Source: Escherichia phage JS10
Length of the DNA: 64,000 nt
Sequence record: EU863409
Reading direction: 5' to 3' (one strand)
The notes under the pieces are model-generated. The model had not been told where the DNA came from and did no database searches. It saw only the letters and a program-made list of their open reading frames with translations. This document shows positions 2,233 through 26,748 of this stretch, in pieces. The position numbers and the translations under genes were made by a program. Each line of letters starts with the position of its first letter. Position 1 is the first letter of the stretch.

Positions 2233-2436
2233 TCAATTCAGGTTACGTTTAAAAATATCTGCTACTTCAAGGAGCTCTTCCTTAGTAGCGATGTCGTTGA
2301 GTATTTTATATCTGATTTCTTTAAAGCGTTCTTTAAAATCTTCAGCTGCATTGATATCAAAAAATCTCTGGATTAGTCGGAATTCTTTGTGGACAGCTTT
2401 ATCAAACAAATCAATGTTGACTTTAAAGTTTGTCAT
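2233..2436 (-). CDS. hypothetical small protein (rIIA.1 position)
   Basis: 67-aa ORF tightly packed between rIIA and the upstream ORF. Confidence 0.4.
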   Translation of the reverse strand: MTNFKVNIDLFDKAVHKEFRLIQRFFDINAAEDFKERFKEIRYKILNDIATKEELLEVADIFKRNLN

Positions 2437-2746
2437 TTTTAACTACCTCATGTTGAACATATTCTCTGGTAGAACCCAGTTCAGCCAGAATTCTTCTCAT
2501 AGAACCCATCGTACTTTTGTGCTCTCTGTGACGATACAATATCTCTAGAACCTTTTCCTGGACAACAGGAGAGAGCGCCTGGTTATCTTTAATCTTTAAG
2601 GCAATAGATTTTACAGCCTTAAGATATTCTAGTCCCTTGCCGCTTGTAATCACTACTCCTTCGTCTTTACAATTACGAATTGCAGTCTCCATAAAAGACA
2701 AAGCCAAGTTATCAGTGTTCACTATACTATTATCTTGCATAATCAT
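2423..2746 (-). CDS. hypothetical protein
   Basis: 107-aa ORF; early-promoter-like element lies just upstream at 2765-2794. Confidence 0.45.
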   Translation of the reverse strand: MIMQDNSIVNTDNLALSFMETAIRNCKDEGVVITSGKGLEYLKAVKSIALKIKDNQALSPVVQEKVLEILYRHREHKSTMGSMRRILAELGSTREYVQHEVVKNDKL

Positions 2747-14724: not shown

Positions 14725-15246
14725 TTAATAACCTCGGTCTTGACGAGCAAAGTTCTCGGCATTTTTAAGATAATACAGTTTAAAGATTTCTTCAGCAGTC
14801 AGTCCAAGACCCTGGAACATATTCAGAACAAAGTGCAGAATATCAATCATTTCGAATTTAATTTCGAGCTGGTCTTCAGGAGACAAATCATTAATCAGGG
14901 TTTCGCGACGTTCAGCATGTTGAGCTTTCCAAGGCTTCCATACTGCAGATGCATCTTTTTCACCATTGCTCATACCACCAAGAGAAGTCAGAAGTTCACG
15001 GAATTCGTCATCAATATAATCTTTCTGGTTGCGAAGCCAATCGACAACTTCACCCGCAGTGGCCAAATCATCAGGATGACGATTATATTCAGGCTTATCT
15101 TTAGCTAAACGAACCTGTAATGATTTCTGCATATCAAGCATAACCTGCAGAGGGTCTTTATCTTCGTGAATCAGAGCATTAAAATAAGCTTCTTCAGCTT
15201 TATCGGCACCGGCAATCAGTTGAGAACATTCATTAAAATGAGCCAT
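14725..15246 (-). CDS. 56: dCTP pyrophosphatase (dCTPase)
   Basis: MAHFNECSQL... matches T4 gp56 start; MazG-like; track start 15264 trimmed to ATG at 15244-15246. Confidence 0.85.
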   Translation of the reverse strand: MAHFNECSQLIAGADKAEEAYFNALIHEDKDPLQVMLDMQKSLQVRLAKDKPEYNRHPDDLATAGEVVDWLRNQKDYIDDEFRELLTSLGGMSNGEKDASAVWKPWKAQHAERRETLINDLSPEDQLEIKFEMIDILHFVLNMFQGLGLTAEEIFKLYYLKNAENFARQDRGY

Positions 15247-15340
15247 TATATTTTTCCTTATCAATTCATTTGTTAGTAAGTGAGATAATTATAAACTGCT
15301 AGATTAAAGCGAATAAATATTAATTTAACAGGAGGATAAC

Positions 15341-21745: not shown

Positions 21746-21867
21746 CTTAATTCCTCGGTTGATAGCCTTATCGACTATCTTCCGAACTTCTCGTTTCTCG
21801 AGCCACCCTAATAATAGCAAGGCTCCGAAAGAGAATAATAACAAACCTATAAAAAGCAATAGAGGAC

Positions 21868-22761
21868 CTAGCATACTACGTCCTCATAACGTGGCATTTC
21901 GTATTCAGAATGAATATTGGCACCGAAATAAATGAATTCAGCCAGACCAGGATGGAATACTAAACCTGGGTTCTCATGATAAATGATATGTGGTCTTGAT
22001 TTCAGAATTTGATAATATTCAACCTTACTCGGTTTGAATTTAATAATCTCTACATCAGGACGATAGTCTTCGCGCTTAAATGAATCATTCGGGTCGGTGA
22101 TATAAAGACGAGCACCTTCAGCGGCAGCTTGGTCTACAACTCTTTCGAATTGATAGCACTTATCCGAAATACGGAATGGATGGAAAATACCATCAATTTT
22201 AATAGGCGCTAGACCTTCAGAGTAACGCTCAATTACTGCAGGATTAATTACCTTTTGGTCTACAAAAATCTTATCAGAGGATGCACCTCGTGACACCAGG
22301 ACGTCTTTCTGGCATTGATTCAGGACTGTAGTATAAAGTGAACGTTCAACCGAAGCCACATCAATATCAATGAACTCGTCGATATAATAACGAGGAACTT
22401 CAGGGTCCATTGTGATATTAAAGTTGAATTGTACAGTGTGAGCACCATCATAACCGGTGATATCGGTTACCAGTCCTGAGCAATCGTAGTATTCGATTAG
22501 TGAATCGACTACAAACTCATTTTCAGACCAGAAATGTTTACGGGTTTCATAAGCATTTTCTTTATACCAAAGTGGTACGAAATTCAGTTCTGGGAATAAT
22601 TCAATGCATTCTTTGATATCGCTCGAATTTCTAGGATAAGCCAGATAATCACCTGGACGAGCACGATTTAAATGGAGTTGAAAATTACCGTCCTTAAGGA
22701 CGGCATATTCACCTGTTTCGTAACTACGCATACTGAAAATAGGAACGATAAACAAACTCAT
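21868..22761 (-). CDS. hypothetical protein at the T4 beta-glucosyltransferase locus; candidate DNA-sugar transferase
   Basis: 297 aa; sits between uvsX and gene 42 where T4 has bgt, but does not resemble T4 bgt. Confidence 0.5.
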   Translation of the reverse strand: MSLFIVPIFSMRSYETGEYAVLKDGNFQLHLNRARPGDYLAYPRNSSDIKECIELFPELNFVPLWYKENAYETRKHFWSENEFVVDSLIEYYDCSGLVTDITGYDGAHTVQFNFNITMDPEVPRYYIDEFIDIDVASVERSLYTTVLNQCQKDVLVSRGASSDKIFVDQKVINPAVIERYSEGLAPIKIDGIFHPFRISDKCYQFERVVDQAAAEGARLYITDPNDSFKREDYRPDVEIIKFKPSKVEYYQILKSRPHIIYHENPGLVFHPGLAEFIYFGANIHSEYEMPRYEDVVC

Positions 22762-23456
22762 TTCAGGAAACCTCGGACGTAGTCAAAATCACGTTCAAAC
22801 ACGTGTGCACTTACCATGGTGTGAGAATATGTACCTAAACCGACACCACACTGTTCAGCAATAAATGCCATCAGTTTACCCTGCAGATAGAAATCCAGCT
22901 GCATAACAACAGCACAGTTTTGTGAACGCATATGGGTGTGTGCATACAAACGTCCGTCACGAATATAATACGTTACCGAATCGGTGCACGGATATTCTAA
23001 GGATTCGTCAGAATCAAGGAGGGCTTGGTCTTGTTCTTGGAGAATCTGGAACACAACTCTTCGCGAGTTAGCCTTTTCTTTAAGCTCTTTAAGTAGGGCT
23101 GGGAGTTGGGCCACAATTCGAGGTCCATAGAAAGTGTTGAAGTTTGCAGGCAATACGTCACTTTTCGGCTTATCAATGAACTTAGCAACATTAGGATATT
23201 CCTTAAATGCTTCGGCGGCGTCAGTACCACCAGAAATCATAAATTTCCAAAAGGATTCGGCATATTCATAACTAATACGATTGATACGTGGGTCGGTGAA
23301 TTTATAGGTGCTTGCATCCAGTACTTCTACAGAAGCAGAACCAATTTCATAACAACGTCCGATACGAGAATCAACTGCAAACTGTGGAGCTTCCAGGATT
23401 TCTTCGTTCATTTGTTTAAATGCATTTTCAAAACTAACAGCGGTAATGTGTTTCAT
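22758..23456 (-). CDS. 42: dCMP hydroxymethylase (thymidylate-synthase fold)
   Basis: 232 aa; NSRRVVFQ...THMRSQNCAVVMQLDFY...HVFERDF align with T4 gp42 blocks. Confidence 0.8.
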   Translation of the reverse strand: MKHITAVSFENAFKQMNEEILEAPQFAVDSRIGRCYEIGSASVEVLDASTYKFTDPRINRISYEYAESFWKFMISGGTDAAEAFKEYPNVAKFIDKPKSDVLPANFNTFYGPRIVAQLPALLKELKEKANSRRVVFQILQEQDQALLDSDESLEYPCTDSVTYYIRDGRLYAHTHMRSQNCAVVMQLDFYLQGKLMAFIAEQCGVGLGTYSHTMVSAHVFERDFDYVRGFLK

Positions 23457-23989
23457 TTATTCACCTTATTTTCAATATATTCGTTCAGACGTTTTAATTC
23501 TACCATATCAACATTAAGCAAATTATTATGGCCGTCATGATTTAAGATTTTAAACACGTTTTCAAAACATGTTTCGTATTGCCGGATAGTTAGGTTGAAC
23601 TCATCTTTGGTTAATTTAATAAGGTCGTCTTCGAAGTCTTCGTCTAATGGATTACGAGTTAAAATAACCTCGATAACGTTAAATTCGGATTTAAACCCTT
23701 TCCAATCTTCCAGTTCTACATAAGGGTCCATTTCACCACGAAGGAATCCTGAGTAAACAATATTACTTGGATAACCACGGTCAAGGATATAAACGAAATT
23801 AGGGTCTAAAAACTTATACAGAGTTTCAACTAAAGCCTTATCGTTATCGGTTCCTAATGAAATACACTTGCCATTAATCTTTTTAGGAAAATCAATAAGG
23901 CGGTATTTCTTATTGGATAACAGATTTTTAATTAAAGTGGACTTCCCGGAATTATCCGGGCCGTCTATAACAATGATTTTTGGATTCAT
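23453..23989 (-). CDS. P-loop kinase, thymidylate-kinase-like
   Basis: 178 aa; Walker A IVIDGPDNSGKST typical of Tmk/dNK-type kinases. Confidence 0.55.
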   Translation of the reverse strand: MNPKIIVIDGPDNSGKSTLIKNLLSNKKYRLIDFPKKINGKCISLGTDNDKALVETLYKFLDPNFVYILDRGYPSNIVYSGFLRGEMDPYVELEDWKGFKSEFNVIEVILTRNPLDEDFEDDLIKLTKDEFNLTIRQYETCFENVFKILNHDGHNNLLNVDMVELKRLNEYIENKVNK

Positions 23990-24384
23990 GGATGATAGGC
24001 CTTATAACTATCAAGAGTTCCTTCACGAACCATTTCTTTAAAGTGGTCAGGACGGATTGCTCGGTCATCGATGATAAAAGTATAACTCGGCTTGTGTGTA
24101 AGCAAATTGTGATATTTCAATCCAATTTTTTCAAGGTTCTTAACCAATGCAGGAACTACTTCAACCAAGATTCGACCTGGGCCACATGAAGTCATGCCAC
24201 GGGCGGTGAACAATGTAATCTCGTACCCTTCATCATAAAGCTTATTAATCATGGACACCATTTCGGTGTCCGGTTTAAAGTTCTCATAATCACGGTCATG
24301 GTTCCAAATCGTGATTGTGTTATCGATATCAAAACATAAGTGTGGCTTATTTTCTACTCGATGCGACATTAAATTTTCTTCCAT
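23986..24384 (-). CDS. HAD-superfamily phosphatase
   Basis: 132 aa; motif I CFDIDNTIT (DxDxT). Confidence 0.6.
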   Translation of the reverse strand: MEENLMSHRVENKPHLCFDIDNTITIWNHDRDYENFKPDTEMVSMINKLYDEGYEITLFTARGMTSCGPGRILVEVVPALVKNLEKIGLKYHNLLTHKPSYTFIIDDRAIRPDHFKEMVREGTLDSYKAYHP

Positions 24385-26042
24385 TGTTTGTGGAGTTCAG
24401 TAGAACCTGTAGGTTTATATTTTACACCAGTTTCCTGGTCAAGCAAAACCCACTTATCAGGACAACGAGTAATAATTTGGGCCGTAATAGGGTCACGAAC
24501 TTCATCGACAAATTCACCTGTAATAAGCTTACGCTTACGAGGATGCCGCTTCAGCAGCACACTCAGTTGGTACAAACCGTTATAATAAGCACCCAGAGCT
24601 TTCAGAGGGTTATTCTTAAAGTAACCTGCCAGAGCCATCCAAATAACAGCAATCCAGAGCTTGTGCTTAAATGTGCACATAGGGATATCGTCTAAAGGCA
24701 TAACCTTTTCGATATCAACGAATACACGAGTTCCGTTACGAGTTAATCCACCCCATAGAGGGTCTGAGTTAAATTTGTCATAGCCATCGATAGAATAAAG
24801 CACCTTAGCTTCATCATAAATCGCAGGGCCTTTAGAACTATTACCGAAATAACCGCGTGGGTCGATGATTTTAATATCACCTTCGTCCGACAGCATAATA
24901 TTACTGTAGTGCGGGTCACCATGAATAAGTTGGTACGGTTCTTTATGTTCAGACAGAATTTCTAGTGCATGGCGGAGAAGTTTTTCAGGGTCGCCTACTT
25001 TGAAATCGTTAACATGGGTAATGCCTTGTGGAGCAAAGCCTTCAATCAATCCGGCAATAGAAGCATTACGAATAAGGACCTTGTCCAATACTTCTTTCTT
25101 AACATCAGAATACCATTGCTCATCGGACGGGTTATCGATAGTTCCACCGAATGAACGTAATGCACTAATGACCTTATAAACCATGAGGACTTTAGTTTCT
25201 TTGGACATAAACCGGTAGGCATCTGCCATGGTCCGACCAAAGATACGTTCCATTTTAATGAATTCGCCTGGAGAAAAGTCTACAATGCTAGGAACGAATT
25301 CAGAATCAATAGAATTATACCAATTGATTTCTTTAGATTGAATTTCTTTACCTAAATCGTTAGTTGGTACTTTAATAGCCAGATTCTCGGTGAATTCTAA
25401 TTTATTAAATTCACGGTTAATTTCAGATTCTTCATGGGCCTTAGCCAGTTTCAATTTGTCACCGACATCAACTACAAAGTCCAGTTTACGTTCAGTCAAA
25501 TAGACCATTGAATCCAGGTTATCAGCAAGGTCTTCACCGTAATTAGAACGGTCGAAACCTGTCCAATTAGCCACCTGATACAAACCAACTACACCGCCAC
25601 CGGTACCAATTTCACGTAAGTACGGTTCTTCAAATGTAAAACGACAATCGGTTCCATAAGTATAGCAGTAGTCGTTACCCCACTCAACTTTATGACCTTC
25701 AGGAATGATGTCACACCAGTTAAACAAGACATTATGACCAATGATATCTTCGGCAATGCAATCGATAGCATGAGCTGAACCATTAGCAACATCAACGTTA
25801 CGAATAGTGAATTTAGGCTTATCACCAGTAATCATGTTAATGGATTTAATATAGCCTTTAACGAGGTCGTTAAATTTGCTGTGAATAACCAGAATAATTT
25901 CATCTGATTGGTTACTATACAAATCATACAAATGCTTTAATACTGTATGTTGTTTGTAGTTAACCAATACCTTCGGGATTTCGTTAGTAATTGGGTACAA
26001 ACGTGAGCCAAGACCTGCGCCTAAAATAACAACCTTTTTCAT
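24369..26042 (-). CDS. bifunctional sugar-1-phosphate nucleotidyltransferase / APH-fold sugar kinase
   Basis: N-terminus VVILGAGLGSRL (NTP-transferase G-x-G-x-R); C-terminus HGDPHYSNIML...IIDPRGYFG (APH/choline-kinase catalytic loop); start trimmed to ATG 26040-26042 with GAGGAA RBS. Confidence 0.65.
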   Translation of the reverse strand: MKKVVILGAGLGSRLYPITNEIPKVLVNYKQHTVLKHLYDLYSNQSDEIILVIHSKFNDLVKGYIKSINMITGDKPKFTIRNVDVANGSAHAIDCIAEDIIGHNVLFNWCDIIPEGHKVEWGNDYCYTYGTDCRFTFEEPYLREIGTGGGVVGLYQVANWTGFDRSNYGEDLADNLDSMVYLTERKLDFVVDVGDKLKLAKAHEESEINREFNKLEFTENLAIKVPTNDLGKEIQSKEINWYNSIDSEFVPSIVDFSPGEFIKMERIFGRTMADAYRFMSKETKVLMVYKVISALRSFGGTIDNPSDEQWYSDVKKEVLDKVLIRNASIAGLIEGFAPQGITHVNDFKVGDPEKLLRHALEILSEHKEPYQLIHGDPHYSNIMLSDEGDIKIIDPRGYFGNSSKGPAIYDEAKVLYSIDGYDKFNSDPLWGGLTRNGTRVFVDIEKVMPLDDIPMCTFKHKLWIAVIWMALAGYFKNNPLKALGAYYNGLYQLSVLLKRHPRKRKLITGEFVDEVRDPITAQIITRCPDKWVLLDQETGVKYKPTGSTELHKQWKKI

Positions 26043-26102
26043 TATCTGTTCCTCAAGTGAATGTAGGTACATTATACACTATTTTTAATAAATTTCTATT
26101 GC

Positions 26103-26603
26103 TTAAATCTTATCTTTACCGTATTCCATGCACTGTTCTACTGCAGCAGGCACTTTGGACTTAAGCTTGTTGATTTGTTTCTTATAATCACGAGCCTTAT
26201 CGAAGCTCTCGGTTTCAAGCATTTCGTAATAACGGGCCTCGTGGACGGAAATCTGTAGATTGATATGGTTTACACACATAGAATACAGTTTCTGCTTTTT
26301 GTACAAATCATCTTGGCGCTTCATTTCTGCCTGGTGTTTGGCTAGTACCGCTTCACGCTTAGACTCTTGTTCACGTTGGAATTCGATTTCCCTTTGAGCA
26401 TATTTTGCACAGTTATTACCGCATTGATTATTAGCTCGGGTATACACAAGTCCAGAACCAGCACGGAATTTCATTTCGCCGTCGAATTGTTTCTGTTCAG
26501 CTGCGATACGAGCTTTACCAACTTCATCAGCAGAAACTGCATCACCGTATTGGACTGCGCAACCTGATAGGAGCATACTCATTGCGATAATTAACTTTTT
26601 CAT
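26103..26603 (-). CDS. putative lipoprotein
   Basis: 166 aa; signal peptide with lipobox LSGC. Confidence 0.55.
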   Translation of the reverse strand: MKKLIIAMSMLLSGCAVQYGDAVSADEVGKARIAAEQKQFDGEMKFRAGSGLVYTRANNQCGNNCAKYAQREIEFQREQESKREAVLAKHQAEMKRQDDLYKKQKLYSMCVNHINLQISVHEARYYEMLETESFDKARDYKKQINKLKSKVPAAVEQCMEYGKDKI

Positions 26604-26610
26604 AATATCC

Positions 26611-26748
26611 TCAATTAAAACAGTTATACTTAATTTGTGCTATAAGAATAATCCATCCCATGATTAATGTTGGAATCATTGGAGGAATTGCCACTGCCCA
26701 ATAAACAGTAAAGGCGGCCATTATAAGAAATAAAATAATTATCTTCAT
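26611..26748 (-). CDS. small membrane protein (45 aa)
   Basis: MKIIILFLIMAAFTVYWAVAIPP...; ATGA start/stop overlap with next gene; below track cutoff. Confidence 0.4.
   Translation of the reverse strand: MKIIILFLIMAAFTVYWAVAIPPMIPTLIMGWIILIAQIKYNCFN

Follow-up and report, generated by a model that had tools for sequence, protein, structure and literature searches.

A nucleotidyltransferase-kinase fusion of Escherichia phage JS10 that very likely supplies UDP-D-arabinofuranose for glycosylation of the phage's own DNA

In the 64,000-nucleotide stretch of Escherichia phage JS10 DNA that we analyzed (EU863409; hereafter the window), a minus-strand gene encodes a single polypeptide in which a nucleotidyltransferase domain precedes a kinase domain of the APH/choline-kinase fold, very likely an AfhE-type bifunctional enzyme providing the UDP-D-arabinofuranose with which the phage glycosylates its own DNA. 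Our analysis shows both folds and their catalytic residues; it also shows orthology and synteny, coupling to a neighboring gene, domain fusions among homologs, and that the phage encodes no isomerase of its own. The original prediction had already proposed the two-domain architecture, a T-even-type phage and, as the purpose of the enzyme, a nucleotide-sugar donor that the host does not supply, and all three are supported, the phage being a Dhakavirus of the Tevenvirinae. If the proposal is true, the enzyme performs the committed step toward UDP-arabinofuranose, a nucleotide sugar that the host does not make, and the sugar would coat phage cytosines, which would thus escape restriction and CRISPR nucleases.

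The gene is an uninterrupted open reading frame that runs from 26072 or 26042 to a TAA at 24371-24369, with the following features.

24369..26042, minus strand: whole coding sequence of the putative AfhE-like bifunctional enzyme, 557 amino acids plus TAA stop, ortholog of JS98 gp042 and RB69 gp52:53
26051..26054, minus strand: Shine-Dalgarno sequence GAGG, 8 nt upstream of the ATG at 26042, read from the sequence
26071..26098, minus strand: promoter-like site just upstream of the gene, TAGAAA, 16-nt spacer and TATAAT, 10/12 matches

The ATG at 26042 is the better start, since it is preceded by GAGG whereas the ATG at 26072 has no Shine-Dalgarno sequence and overlaps the TATAAT box (26076-26071). 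The 567-amino-acid form starting at 26072 was rejected on these grounds, and most database entries give 557 amino acids. The 557-amino-acid form is annotated in JS98 as gp042 ('RB69 orf052c-like'), which shares 98.5% DNA identity with the gene studied here and agrees with the originally predicted coordinates of 24369-26042. The promoter-like site is weak evidence because a promoter/terminator scan returned 18 sites against 18.9 expected by chance, a total not above chance.

The polypeptide divides into domains and motifs as follows.

25428..26042, minus strand: N-terminal sugar-1-phosphate nucleotidyltransferase domain, about residues 1-205
26001..26021, minus strand: NTP-binding loop G-x-G-x-(G)-x-R, GAGLGSR, residues 8-14, with G10 and R14 invariant in 66 homologs
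24546..25427, minus strand: C-terminal APH/choline-kinase-fold (protein-kinase-like) kinase domain, about residues 206-499
24900..24923, minus strand: kinase catalytic loop HGDPHYSN, residues 374-381, Brenner motif H-G-D-x4-N with H374, G375, D376 and N381 invariant
24843..24866, minus strand: IDPRGYFG, residues 393-400, metal-binding Asp segment and DFG equivalent, all eight residues invariant in 66 homologs

All three motifs on which the architecture had been predicted were found, namely VVILGAGLGSRL (residues 4-15), HGDPHYSN and IDPRGYFG. An HMM search placed both domains above their Pfam cut-offs, NTP_transferase with 33.9 bits (cut-off, 21.2) and APH with 25.6 bits (cut-off, 23.2), and HGDPHYSN falls within the APH match (residues 356-427), while the NTP-binding loop aligns to the signature loops of LicC and HddC. 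Catalytic residues are present in both domains on a 66-sequence alignment, in which 59 columns are invariant over all homologs, distant jumbo-phage proteins included; among these are G10, R14, K24, D111, D192, G194, D195, K198, K224 and E238 as well as H374, G375, D376, N381 and D394-G400. Given Pfam scores above the cut-offs and residues invariant in 66 homologs, the motif matches are, on sequence grounds, not due to chance. Structural comparison bore out the kinase fold of the C-terminal half, the PDB neighbors being 4y7t, 1jyk and APH-type kinases, and the best PDB profile match was HddC (E 1.7e-11).

Searches with the RB69 proteins show that the fusion is a full-length ortholog of RB69 gp52:53. 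In tblastn, RB69 gp53 aligns with the N-terminal part at 44% identity (E 1e-46) and RB69 gp52 with the C-terminal part at 41% (E 2e-72), in contiguous matches, and the protein matches phrog_4098 over its full length. The link to AfhE runs through RB69 and a secondary source: in PMC13326640, RB69 gp52:53 is equated with HY126 AfhE, a D-arabinose-5-phosphate 1-kinase and UDP-arabinofuranose pyrophosphorylase (citing He et al. 2026). HY126 AfhE, RB69 gp52:53 (ORF53_52c) and DLP3 gp82 have the same two-domain order, the RB69 protein is 561 amino acids long compared with 557 here, and the published PDB neighbors of the RB69 and DLP3 proteins are the identical set.

Of 366 phage records with the fusion, 365 have it at full length. 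The copy studied here belongs to a clade of Dhakavirus, Klebsiella Marfavirus and Proteus phages that is separate from the other orthologs, and it shares only 42-46% identity with its counterparts in Mosigvirus, Acinetobacter phages and Thanatos. Propagation of Thanatos requires the ortholog TH1_060 (43% identical), and the purified protein showed no pyrophosphorylase activity on xylose-1-phosphate, arabinose-1-phosphate being outside that assay (PMC12838424).

The genes directly downstream are consistent with a role in DNA arabinosylation.

23986..24369, minus strand: HAD-superfamily phosphatase, AfhF-like, ortholog of RB69 gp51 (62% identity from the ATG at 24369)
23453..23989, minus strand: P-loop nucleotide-kinase-like protein, 38% identity to RB69 gp45, phrog_761 'thymidylate kinase'
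22758..23456, minus strand: thymidylate-synthase homolog, ortholog of RB69 gp48 (80% identity), Pfam Thymidylat_synt
21868..22761, minus strand: glycosyltransferase, ortholog of RB69 gp46:47 (65-70% identity to gp46 and gp47), phrog_3891

The ATG of the HAD gene (24369) overlaps the TAA of the fusion gene in the sequence TAATG. The HAD protein matches the NCBIfam EcbF-BcbF capsule biosynthesis phosphatase and HAD-IIIA models and phrog_1238; section 27 of PMC13326640 gives the phosphatase its pathway role, and the phage HAD protein is reported there to be GmhB-like. A second HAD-like match at 14932-15153 (E 0.006) was dismissed as chance, the open reading frame there being a gp56-type dCTPase (Pfam dUTPase_2). 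RB69 gp48 is a 5-hydroxy-dCMP synthase whose activity was shown in PMC13326640, where gp46:47 is proposed as the first DNA arabinosyltransferase. The whole cluster lies between uvsX and DNA polymerase, as in RB69, where it likewise comprises genes for an HAD phosphatase, a 5-hydroxy-dCMP synthase and an arabinosyltransferase; the two phages differ in gene order, the P-loop kinase sitting here between the thymidylate-synthase homolog and the HAD gene. The fusion proteins are only about 42% identical, and the phage studied here has no arabinose-5-phosphate isomerase, no gp49 or gp50 homologs and no second arabinosyltransferase.

We propose that the C-terminal kinase domain would use ATP to phosphorylate the anomeric C1 hydroxyl of D-arabinose-5-phosphate (A5P), giving arabinofuranose-1,5-bisphosphate, with the 5-phosphate expected to keep the sugar in its furanose ring form. 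The translationally coupled HAD phosphatase would then take off the 5-phosphate, and the N-terminal RmlA/MurU/LicC-fold domain would convert the resulting arabinofuranose-1-phosphate and UTP into UDP-arabinofuranose and pyrophosphate. In the last step the neighboring GT-B glycosyltransferase would move arabinose onto 5-hydroxycytosine in DNA, this base arising as 5-hydroxy-dCMP from the adjacent thymidylate-synthase homolog, and the outcome would be DNA resistant to host nucleases. Which substrates are used, that the nucleotide is UTP and in what order the steps occur are drawn from the literature on orthologs that are ∼42% identical. NTP specificity is not readable from the sequence. For these orthologs section 27 of PMC13326640, citing He et al. 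2026, names A5P as the kinase substrate, with the 1,5-bisphosphate as intermediate. The literature searched contained no enzymatic or DNA-chemistry data on any Dhakavirus.

The source of A5P would set this phage apart from RB69. RB69 gp55, the arabinose-5-phosphate isomerase, has no tblastn match at E≤1 anywhere in the window or the remaining JS98 genome, and in Klebsiella phage F48 the interval from DNA polymerase to the fusion gene contains no isomerase. In phage records the fusion occurs 366 times and the isomerase 276 times, and Klebsiella and Proteus phages are absent among the main isomerase-bearing groups of records. A phage isomerase accompanies most orthologs and is usual in the family, not defining. 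Since the phage has no isomerase of its own, A5P is probably drawn from host KdsD/GutQ in the Dhakavirus lineage.

The same observations could be read differently, with the Dhakavirus/Marfavirus/Proteus-phage clade keeping the architecture and logic but using another phosphosugar or NTP, so that its DNA glycan would be unlike the arabinofuranosyl-5-hydroxycytosine of RB69. We regard this as quite unlikely. Identity to all other orthologs of at most 46%, the missing isomerase in JS98 and in the F48 interval, with which the record counts agree, and the lack of Dhakavirus DNA chemistry in the literature searched speak for it, but the acceptor-side gene (80%) and the transferase gene (65-70%) are well conserved with RB69 and therefore favor the same donor, and loss of the phage isomerase is easily tolerated because the host supplies A5P. 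The 59 invariant columns argue in the same direction, as does the grouping of Dhakaviruses with syntenic arabinosylation clusters in PMC13326640. When specificity-changing residues were sought in the isomerase-less clade, 19 clade-specific substitutions relative to other Straboviridae orthologs were found, mostly conservative and often matching distant homologs, and they gave no support for altered chemistry.

Very unlikely, in our view, is a salvage route of the AmgK/MurU type in one chain, in which a free sugar (e.g., D-arabinose) would be phosphorylated at C1 and then turned into the NDP-sugar with no bisphosphate. E. coli keeps a steady pool of A5P for Kdo synthesis and has no known pool of free D-arabinose, both of which count against this route. 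The conserved HAD phosphatase translationally coupled to the fusion gene also counts against it, because a phosphatase would have no role there. In independent support of the A5P pathway, three metagenomic homologs (P0068, P0078 and P0094; 922-946 amino acids) combine HAD, SIS, NTP_transferase and APH domains on a single polypeptide, the SIS domain being that of a sugar-phosphate isomerase, and an SIS protein is encoded directly upstream of the homolog P0070. Together with the A5P substrate given for the orthologs in the section of PMC13326640 cited above, these findings do not bear out the part of the original prediction that had the donor made directly from free sugars, nor does its proposed likeness to MurU/AmgK extend to family membership, since the protein reaches 20-24 bits with the NCBIfam MurU models, whose cut-offs are 250-370. 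AmgK and MurU, which salvage MurNAc to UDP-MurNAc, are moreover two separate proteins that act on a free amino sugar and involve neither a bisphosphate intermediate nor a phosphatase.

Returning to the A5P pathway, its logic is, by analogy, nearer to the NDP-heptose pathway (GmhA, HldE/HddA, GmhB, HddC) than to AmgK/MurU salvage, because of the HAD coupling, the four-domain metagenomic fusions and the published A5P and 1,5-bisphosphate steps. Both would share a four-step logic, in which an SIS isomerase (GmhA for heptose) provides a terminally phosphorylated sugar, an anomeric kinase (HldE or HddA, acting on heptose-7-phosphate) makes the bisphosphate, an HAD phosphatase (GmhB) strips the terminal phosphate and a nucleotidyltransferase (HldE-C or HddC) yields the NDP-sugar. 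HddC, the best PDB profile match of the phage protein, thereby belongs to the analogous pathway. In E. coli, HldE also joins a kinase to a nucleotidyltransferase, but its kinase has a ribokinase-type fold and that of HddA a GHMP-type fold, whereas the phage enzyme has an APH/protein-kinase-like fold. The sugars also differ, a C7 heptose there compared with the proposed C5 arabinofuranose here, and the NDP-heptose product goes to LPS or capsule while the product proposed here would go onto DNA.

A LicA/LicC-like pair of a choline or other alcohol kinase and a CTP:phospho-alcohol cytidylyltransferase, giving a CDP-activated nonsugar head group, is hardly credible: the structural identity of 11-15% is a likeness at the level of the fold only, the LicC alignment covers just the short signature loop (residues 3-53, E 0.0011), no Pfam choline-kinase match was listed at E≤0.01, LicA and LicC are separate proteins with a nonsugar substrate and CTP, and the gene sits in a cluster for DNA-base glycosylation that includes a GT-B transferase, while fusions among the homologs contain an SIS sugar isomerase.

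Filing the protein under MurU, GlmU, RmlA, GalU, HddC or MTR kinase was rejected as well; no NCBIfam family can be assigned because every match is far below its curated cut-off. The label 'bifunctional protein GlmU' on some phage records is a misannotation (TIGR01173 gives 21.6 bits, its cut-off being 366.85), as only the N-terminal nucleotidyltransferase fold is common to both and GlmU has a left-handed beta-helix acetyltransferase domain where the phage protein has its kinase.

The family is already known, having been described in 2018, when PMC6024577 named the homolog gp43 of Dhakavirus IME08, and assigned its function biochemically in 2026. Because the role has been published for relatives (Thomas 2018; Mahler 2025; He 2026; Lee 2026), no new question is opened, and the practical value of the assignment is annotation. 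All Dhakavirus and Marfavirus copies that we saw in public databases are called 'hypothetical' or 'nucleotidyl transferase domain-containing', and some orthologs in other phages are labeled 'GlmU' or named as other transferases. For the HAD phosphatase that partners the enzyme, the label 'phosphoheptose isomerase' is wrong, and the thymidylate-synthase homolog is labeled dCMP hydroxymethylase or thymidylate synthase. What is locally new is the minimal form of the pathway in the Dhakavirus lineage, which probably relies on host KdsD/GutQ for A5P and so predicts a host dependency.

Beyond the kinase domain, the protein ends in a further segment.

24372..24545, minus strand: C-terminal extension of ∼58 residues (500-557), restricted to T4-like (Straboviridae) orthologs

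In these orthologs it is conserved as ITxxxITKxPxKWxLxDxETGxxYxP...QW, and the alignment of homologs shows it to be absent from the jumbo-phage and metagenome proteins. A Pfam search of the extension gave no match, and in the predicted structure it forms short beta strands with a pLDDT of 73-87. It could be a docking module, e.g., for the HAD phosphatase or a nucleotide-synthesis complex, channeling the bisphosphate intermediate.

The fusion gene lies on the minus strand, with the DNA polymerase gene (gp43) and imm upstream and uvsX downstream, in a region (window 21800-26700) that shares 98.5% identity with Escherichia phage JS98 (genus Dhakavirus of the Tevenvirinae) and is covered by about 50 related records with identities of 90-99%. 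It corresponds to JS98 gp042, annotated there as "hypothetical protein, RB69 orf052c-like". The reading frame is unbroken and terminates at a TAA at 24371-24369. A GAGG sits 8 nt 5' of the ATG at 26042, and most database entries use the resulting 557-residue form, so the originally predicted span of 24369-26042 is right; the other in-frame start, ATG 26072, was set aside since it lacks a Shine-Dalgarno sequence, overlaps a TATAAT box and is the minority choice in databases.

The predicted architecture, a nucleotidyltransferase followed by an APH-fold kinase, was confirmed by Pfam, by an alignment and by an AlphaFold2 model. The three motifs on which the original prediction relied can all be located (residues 4-15, 374-381 and 393-400), and both domains score above their Pfam gathering cutoffs (NTP_transferase, 33.9 against 21.2 bits; APH, 25.6 against 23.2 bits). 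We collected 189 homologs and aligned 66 of them, and all of the expected catalytic residues fall in invariant columns: Gly10, Arg14, Lys24, Asp111, Asp192-x-Gly194-Asp195, and Lys198 in the nucleotidyltransferase and, in the kinase, Lys224 on a strand, Glu238 on the next helix, His374-Gly-Asp376-x4-Asn381, and Asp394 in the IDPRGYFG segment. The model has a mean pLDDT of 93.0 and a pTM of 0.89. The chain ends in an additional element:

24372-24545, minus strand, C-terminal extension, residues 500-557 (about 58 residues)

This extension carries the conserved motif ITxxxITKxPxKWxLxDxETGxxYxP...QW, is modeled as short beta strands (pLDDT 73-87) and had no match in a Pfam search. It is confined to T4-like (Straboviridae) orthologs, with no counterpart in the jumbo-phage and metagenome homologs compared, and is part of the small residual novelty of an enzyme that is already known.

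By every available sequence test the protein is a member of the AfhE/RB69 gp52:53 family, although its PHROGs family, phrog_4098, is labeled "unknown function". It falls below the NCBIfam cutoffs for MurU, GlmU, RmlA, GalU, HddC, and MTR kinase, and membership in these families was rejected; some orthologs in other phages are wrongly labeled "bifunctional protein GlmU". The likeness to AmgK/MurU and to LicA/LicC is at the level of the fold only. The best PDB profile match is HddC (E 1.7e-11), the nucleotidyltransferase of the NDP-heptose route, and this route, with the same order of isomerase, anomeric kinase, HAD phosphatase, and nucleotidyltransferase, is the closest analogy in pathway logic.

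In tblastn searches with the RB69 proteins, the N-terminal part aligned with 44% identity (E 1e-46) and the C-terminal part with 41% (E 2e-72), and on this sequence comparison the protein is orthologous to RB69 gp52:53 over its full length. The gene split in the RB69 GenBank record is a sequencing error fixed by Thomas et al. 2018 (PMC6024577), and 365 of the 366 phage records that carry the fusion have it in full length. Its neighbors, orthologs of the RB69 cluster, and one more distant gene of the window are as follows:

21868-22761, minus strand, glycosyltransferase, RB69 gp46:47 ortholog (65-70% identity)
22758-23456, minus strand, thymidylate-synthase homolog of 232 residues, RB69 gp48 ortholog (80% identity)
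23453-23989, minus strand, P-loop kinase, RB69 gp45 ortholog (38% identity)
23986-24369, minus strand, HAD phosphatase, RB69 gp51 ortholog (62% identity)
14725-15264, minus strand, gp56-type dCTPase (Pfam dUTPase_2)

The P-loop "thymidylate kinase-like" protein lies between the thymidylate-synthase homolog and the HAD gene, whereas RB69 gp45 adjoins uvsX; the cluster order is therefore rearranged relative to RB69. Database records name the thymidylate-synthase homolog either dCMP hydroxymethylase or thymidylate synthase. Experiments have established RB69 gp48 as a 5-hydroxy-dCMP synthase (PMC13326640), and the 80% identity to it suggests that the DNA of this "T-even" phage is probably built on 5-hydroxycytosine and not on hydroxymethylcytosine. 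The gp56-type dCTPase is the partner that depletes dCTP in the cytosine-replacement pathway. The HAD protein gave a weak tblastn match to its ORF (E 0.006), judged to be due to chance, the ORF being a dUTPase_2 protein.

The TAA that ends the fusion gene and the ATG that starts the HAD gene overlap (TAATG, 24371-24367), and the alignment with RB69 gp51 begins exactly at this ATG, 24369; hence the pair is translationally coupled. As in RB69, this is probably the true start, and the longer version annotated in JS98 (ATG 24384, span 23986-24384) is probably wrong. JS98, RB69, and PHROGs all label the gene "phosphoheptose isomerase", which also looks wrong given that in NCBIfam it matches HAD-IIIA and EcbF-BcbF capsule phosphatases.

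The fusion was noted by Thomas et al. 2018 (PMC6024577), who named gp43 of the Dhakavirus IME08 as a homolog and suggested that the protein acts in making UDP-arabinose. In PMC13326640, Lee et al. 2026 showed that RB69 and DLP3 DNA bears arabinosylated 5-hydroxycytosine and included Dhakaviruses among the syntenic clusters; section 27 of that paper treats the nucleotidyltransferase-kinase proteins RB69 gp52:53 and DLP3 gp82 as analogs of HY126 AfhE. The two folds, the catalytic residues, the orthology and the gene coupling are observed for the JS10 enzyme and locus, and the multidomain fusions for metagenomic homologs. From orthologs about 42% identical, on a second-hand account of that work, we infer which substrates are used, that UTP is the nucleotide and in what order the steps run. 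The kinase domain would phosphorylate arabinose-5-phosphate (A5P) at C1, the HAD phosphatase would remove the 5-phosphate, the N-terminal domain would make UDP-Araf, and the adjacent GT-B enzyme would pass the arabinose to 5-hydroxycytosine in DNA. From sugar chemistry, a phosphate on O5 should allow the sugar to close only as a furanose, which would explain a furanose nucleotide sugar without a mutase.

The general purpose originally predicted for the enzyme was correct, but synthesis from a free sugar is probably wrong, as the coupled phosphatase and the homologs point otherwise. Three metagenomic proteins of 922-946 residues (P0068, P0078, and P0094) join HAD, SIS (sugar-phosphate isomerase), NTP_transferase, and APH-type kinase domains in a single chain; the APH match reaches the reporting threshold in P0078 only, and a kinase region is inferred for the other two because they align with about 89% of the query. 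On a phage-like contig of 316 kb, the gene directly upstream of another homolog, P0070, also encodes a SIS protein. Together the fusions tie all four steps, Ru5P to A5P to Ara-1,5-P2 to Ara-1-P to NDP-Ara.

The ortholog in Shewanella phage Thanatos, TH1_060 (43% identity to the JS10 protein), is genetically essential and was inactive in vitro with xylose-1-P (PMC12838424). The same study reported the GT-B protein TH1_063 as a "UDP-xylose pyrophosphorylase", whereas PMC13326640 treated it as syntenic with the proposed arabinosyltransferases; this conflict over the roles of the two proteins may stem from the choice of substrate.

Neither the RB69 A5P isomerase (gp55) nor the second arabinosyltransferase (gp03) nor gp49 had a tblastn match at E ≤ 1 in the window and the rest of the JS98 genome, and nothing credible was found there for gp50 (a 21-residue chance fragment, E 0.59). 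The RB69 isomerase position is taken in JS10 by imm and the first of these ORFs:

26103-26603, minus strand, ORF of 166 residues with a lipoprotein-type signal MKKLIIAMSMLLSGC, phrog_1754 (labeled unknown function)
2423-2746, minus strand, DUF7367 ORF of 107 residues between rIIA and gene 39

The second occupies the interval that in RB69 is the site of gp03. With one transferase only, this phage is likely to make a mono-arabinosyl product, by analogy with Thanatos, which likewise has one transferase and whose DNA is reported as mono-arabinosylated (PMC13326640).

In Klebsiella phage F48 (Marfavirus), where the enzyme shares 80% identity with that of JS10, gp49-like and gp50-like genes are retained and no isomerase lies between the DNA polymerase and fusion genes. 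Records with the fusion number 366 and those with the isomerase 276, and the 79 records with a fusion protein at least 60% identical to that of JS10 roughly account for the gap; taken as record totals, these numbers fit a clade-level absence of the isomerase. KdsD and GutQ supply A5P for Kdo synthesis (GutQ reference cited in PMC6024577). Without a phage isomerase, A5P would have to come from these host enzymes. The clade-specific positions were searched for signs of changed specificity, and only 19, with mostly conservative changes often in the same state as distant homologs, separate the JS10-type clade from other Straboviridae orthologs. This divergent isomerase-less clade is also part of the residual novelty.

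Among the metagenomic loci, L004 (14-2854) has a four-domain gene followed by a Sulfotransfer_2 gene, and three phage-like contigs of about 310 kb (L005, 6297-10359; L006 and L007, 7001-12032) encode nucleotidyltransferase-kinase fusions of about 30% identity, adjoined in L005 by a SIS protein. All three encode an Fpg/Nei-type DNA glycosylase (PF01149) a few genes downstream of the fusion, with gyrase/topoisomerase genes close by.
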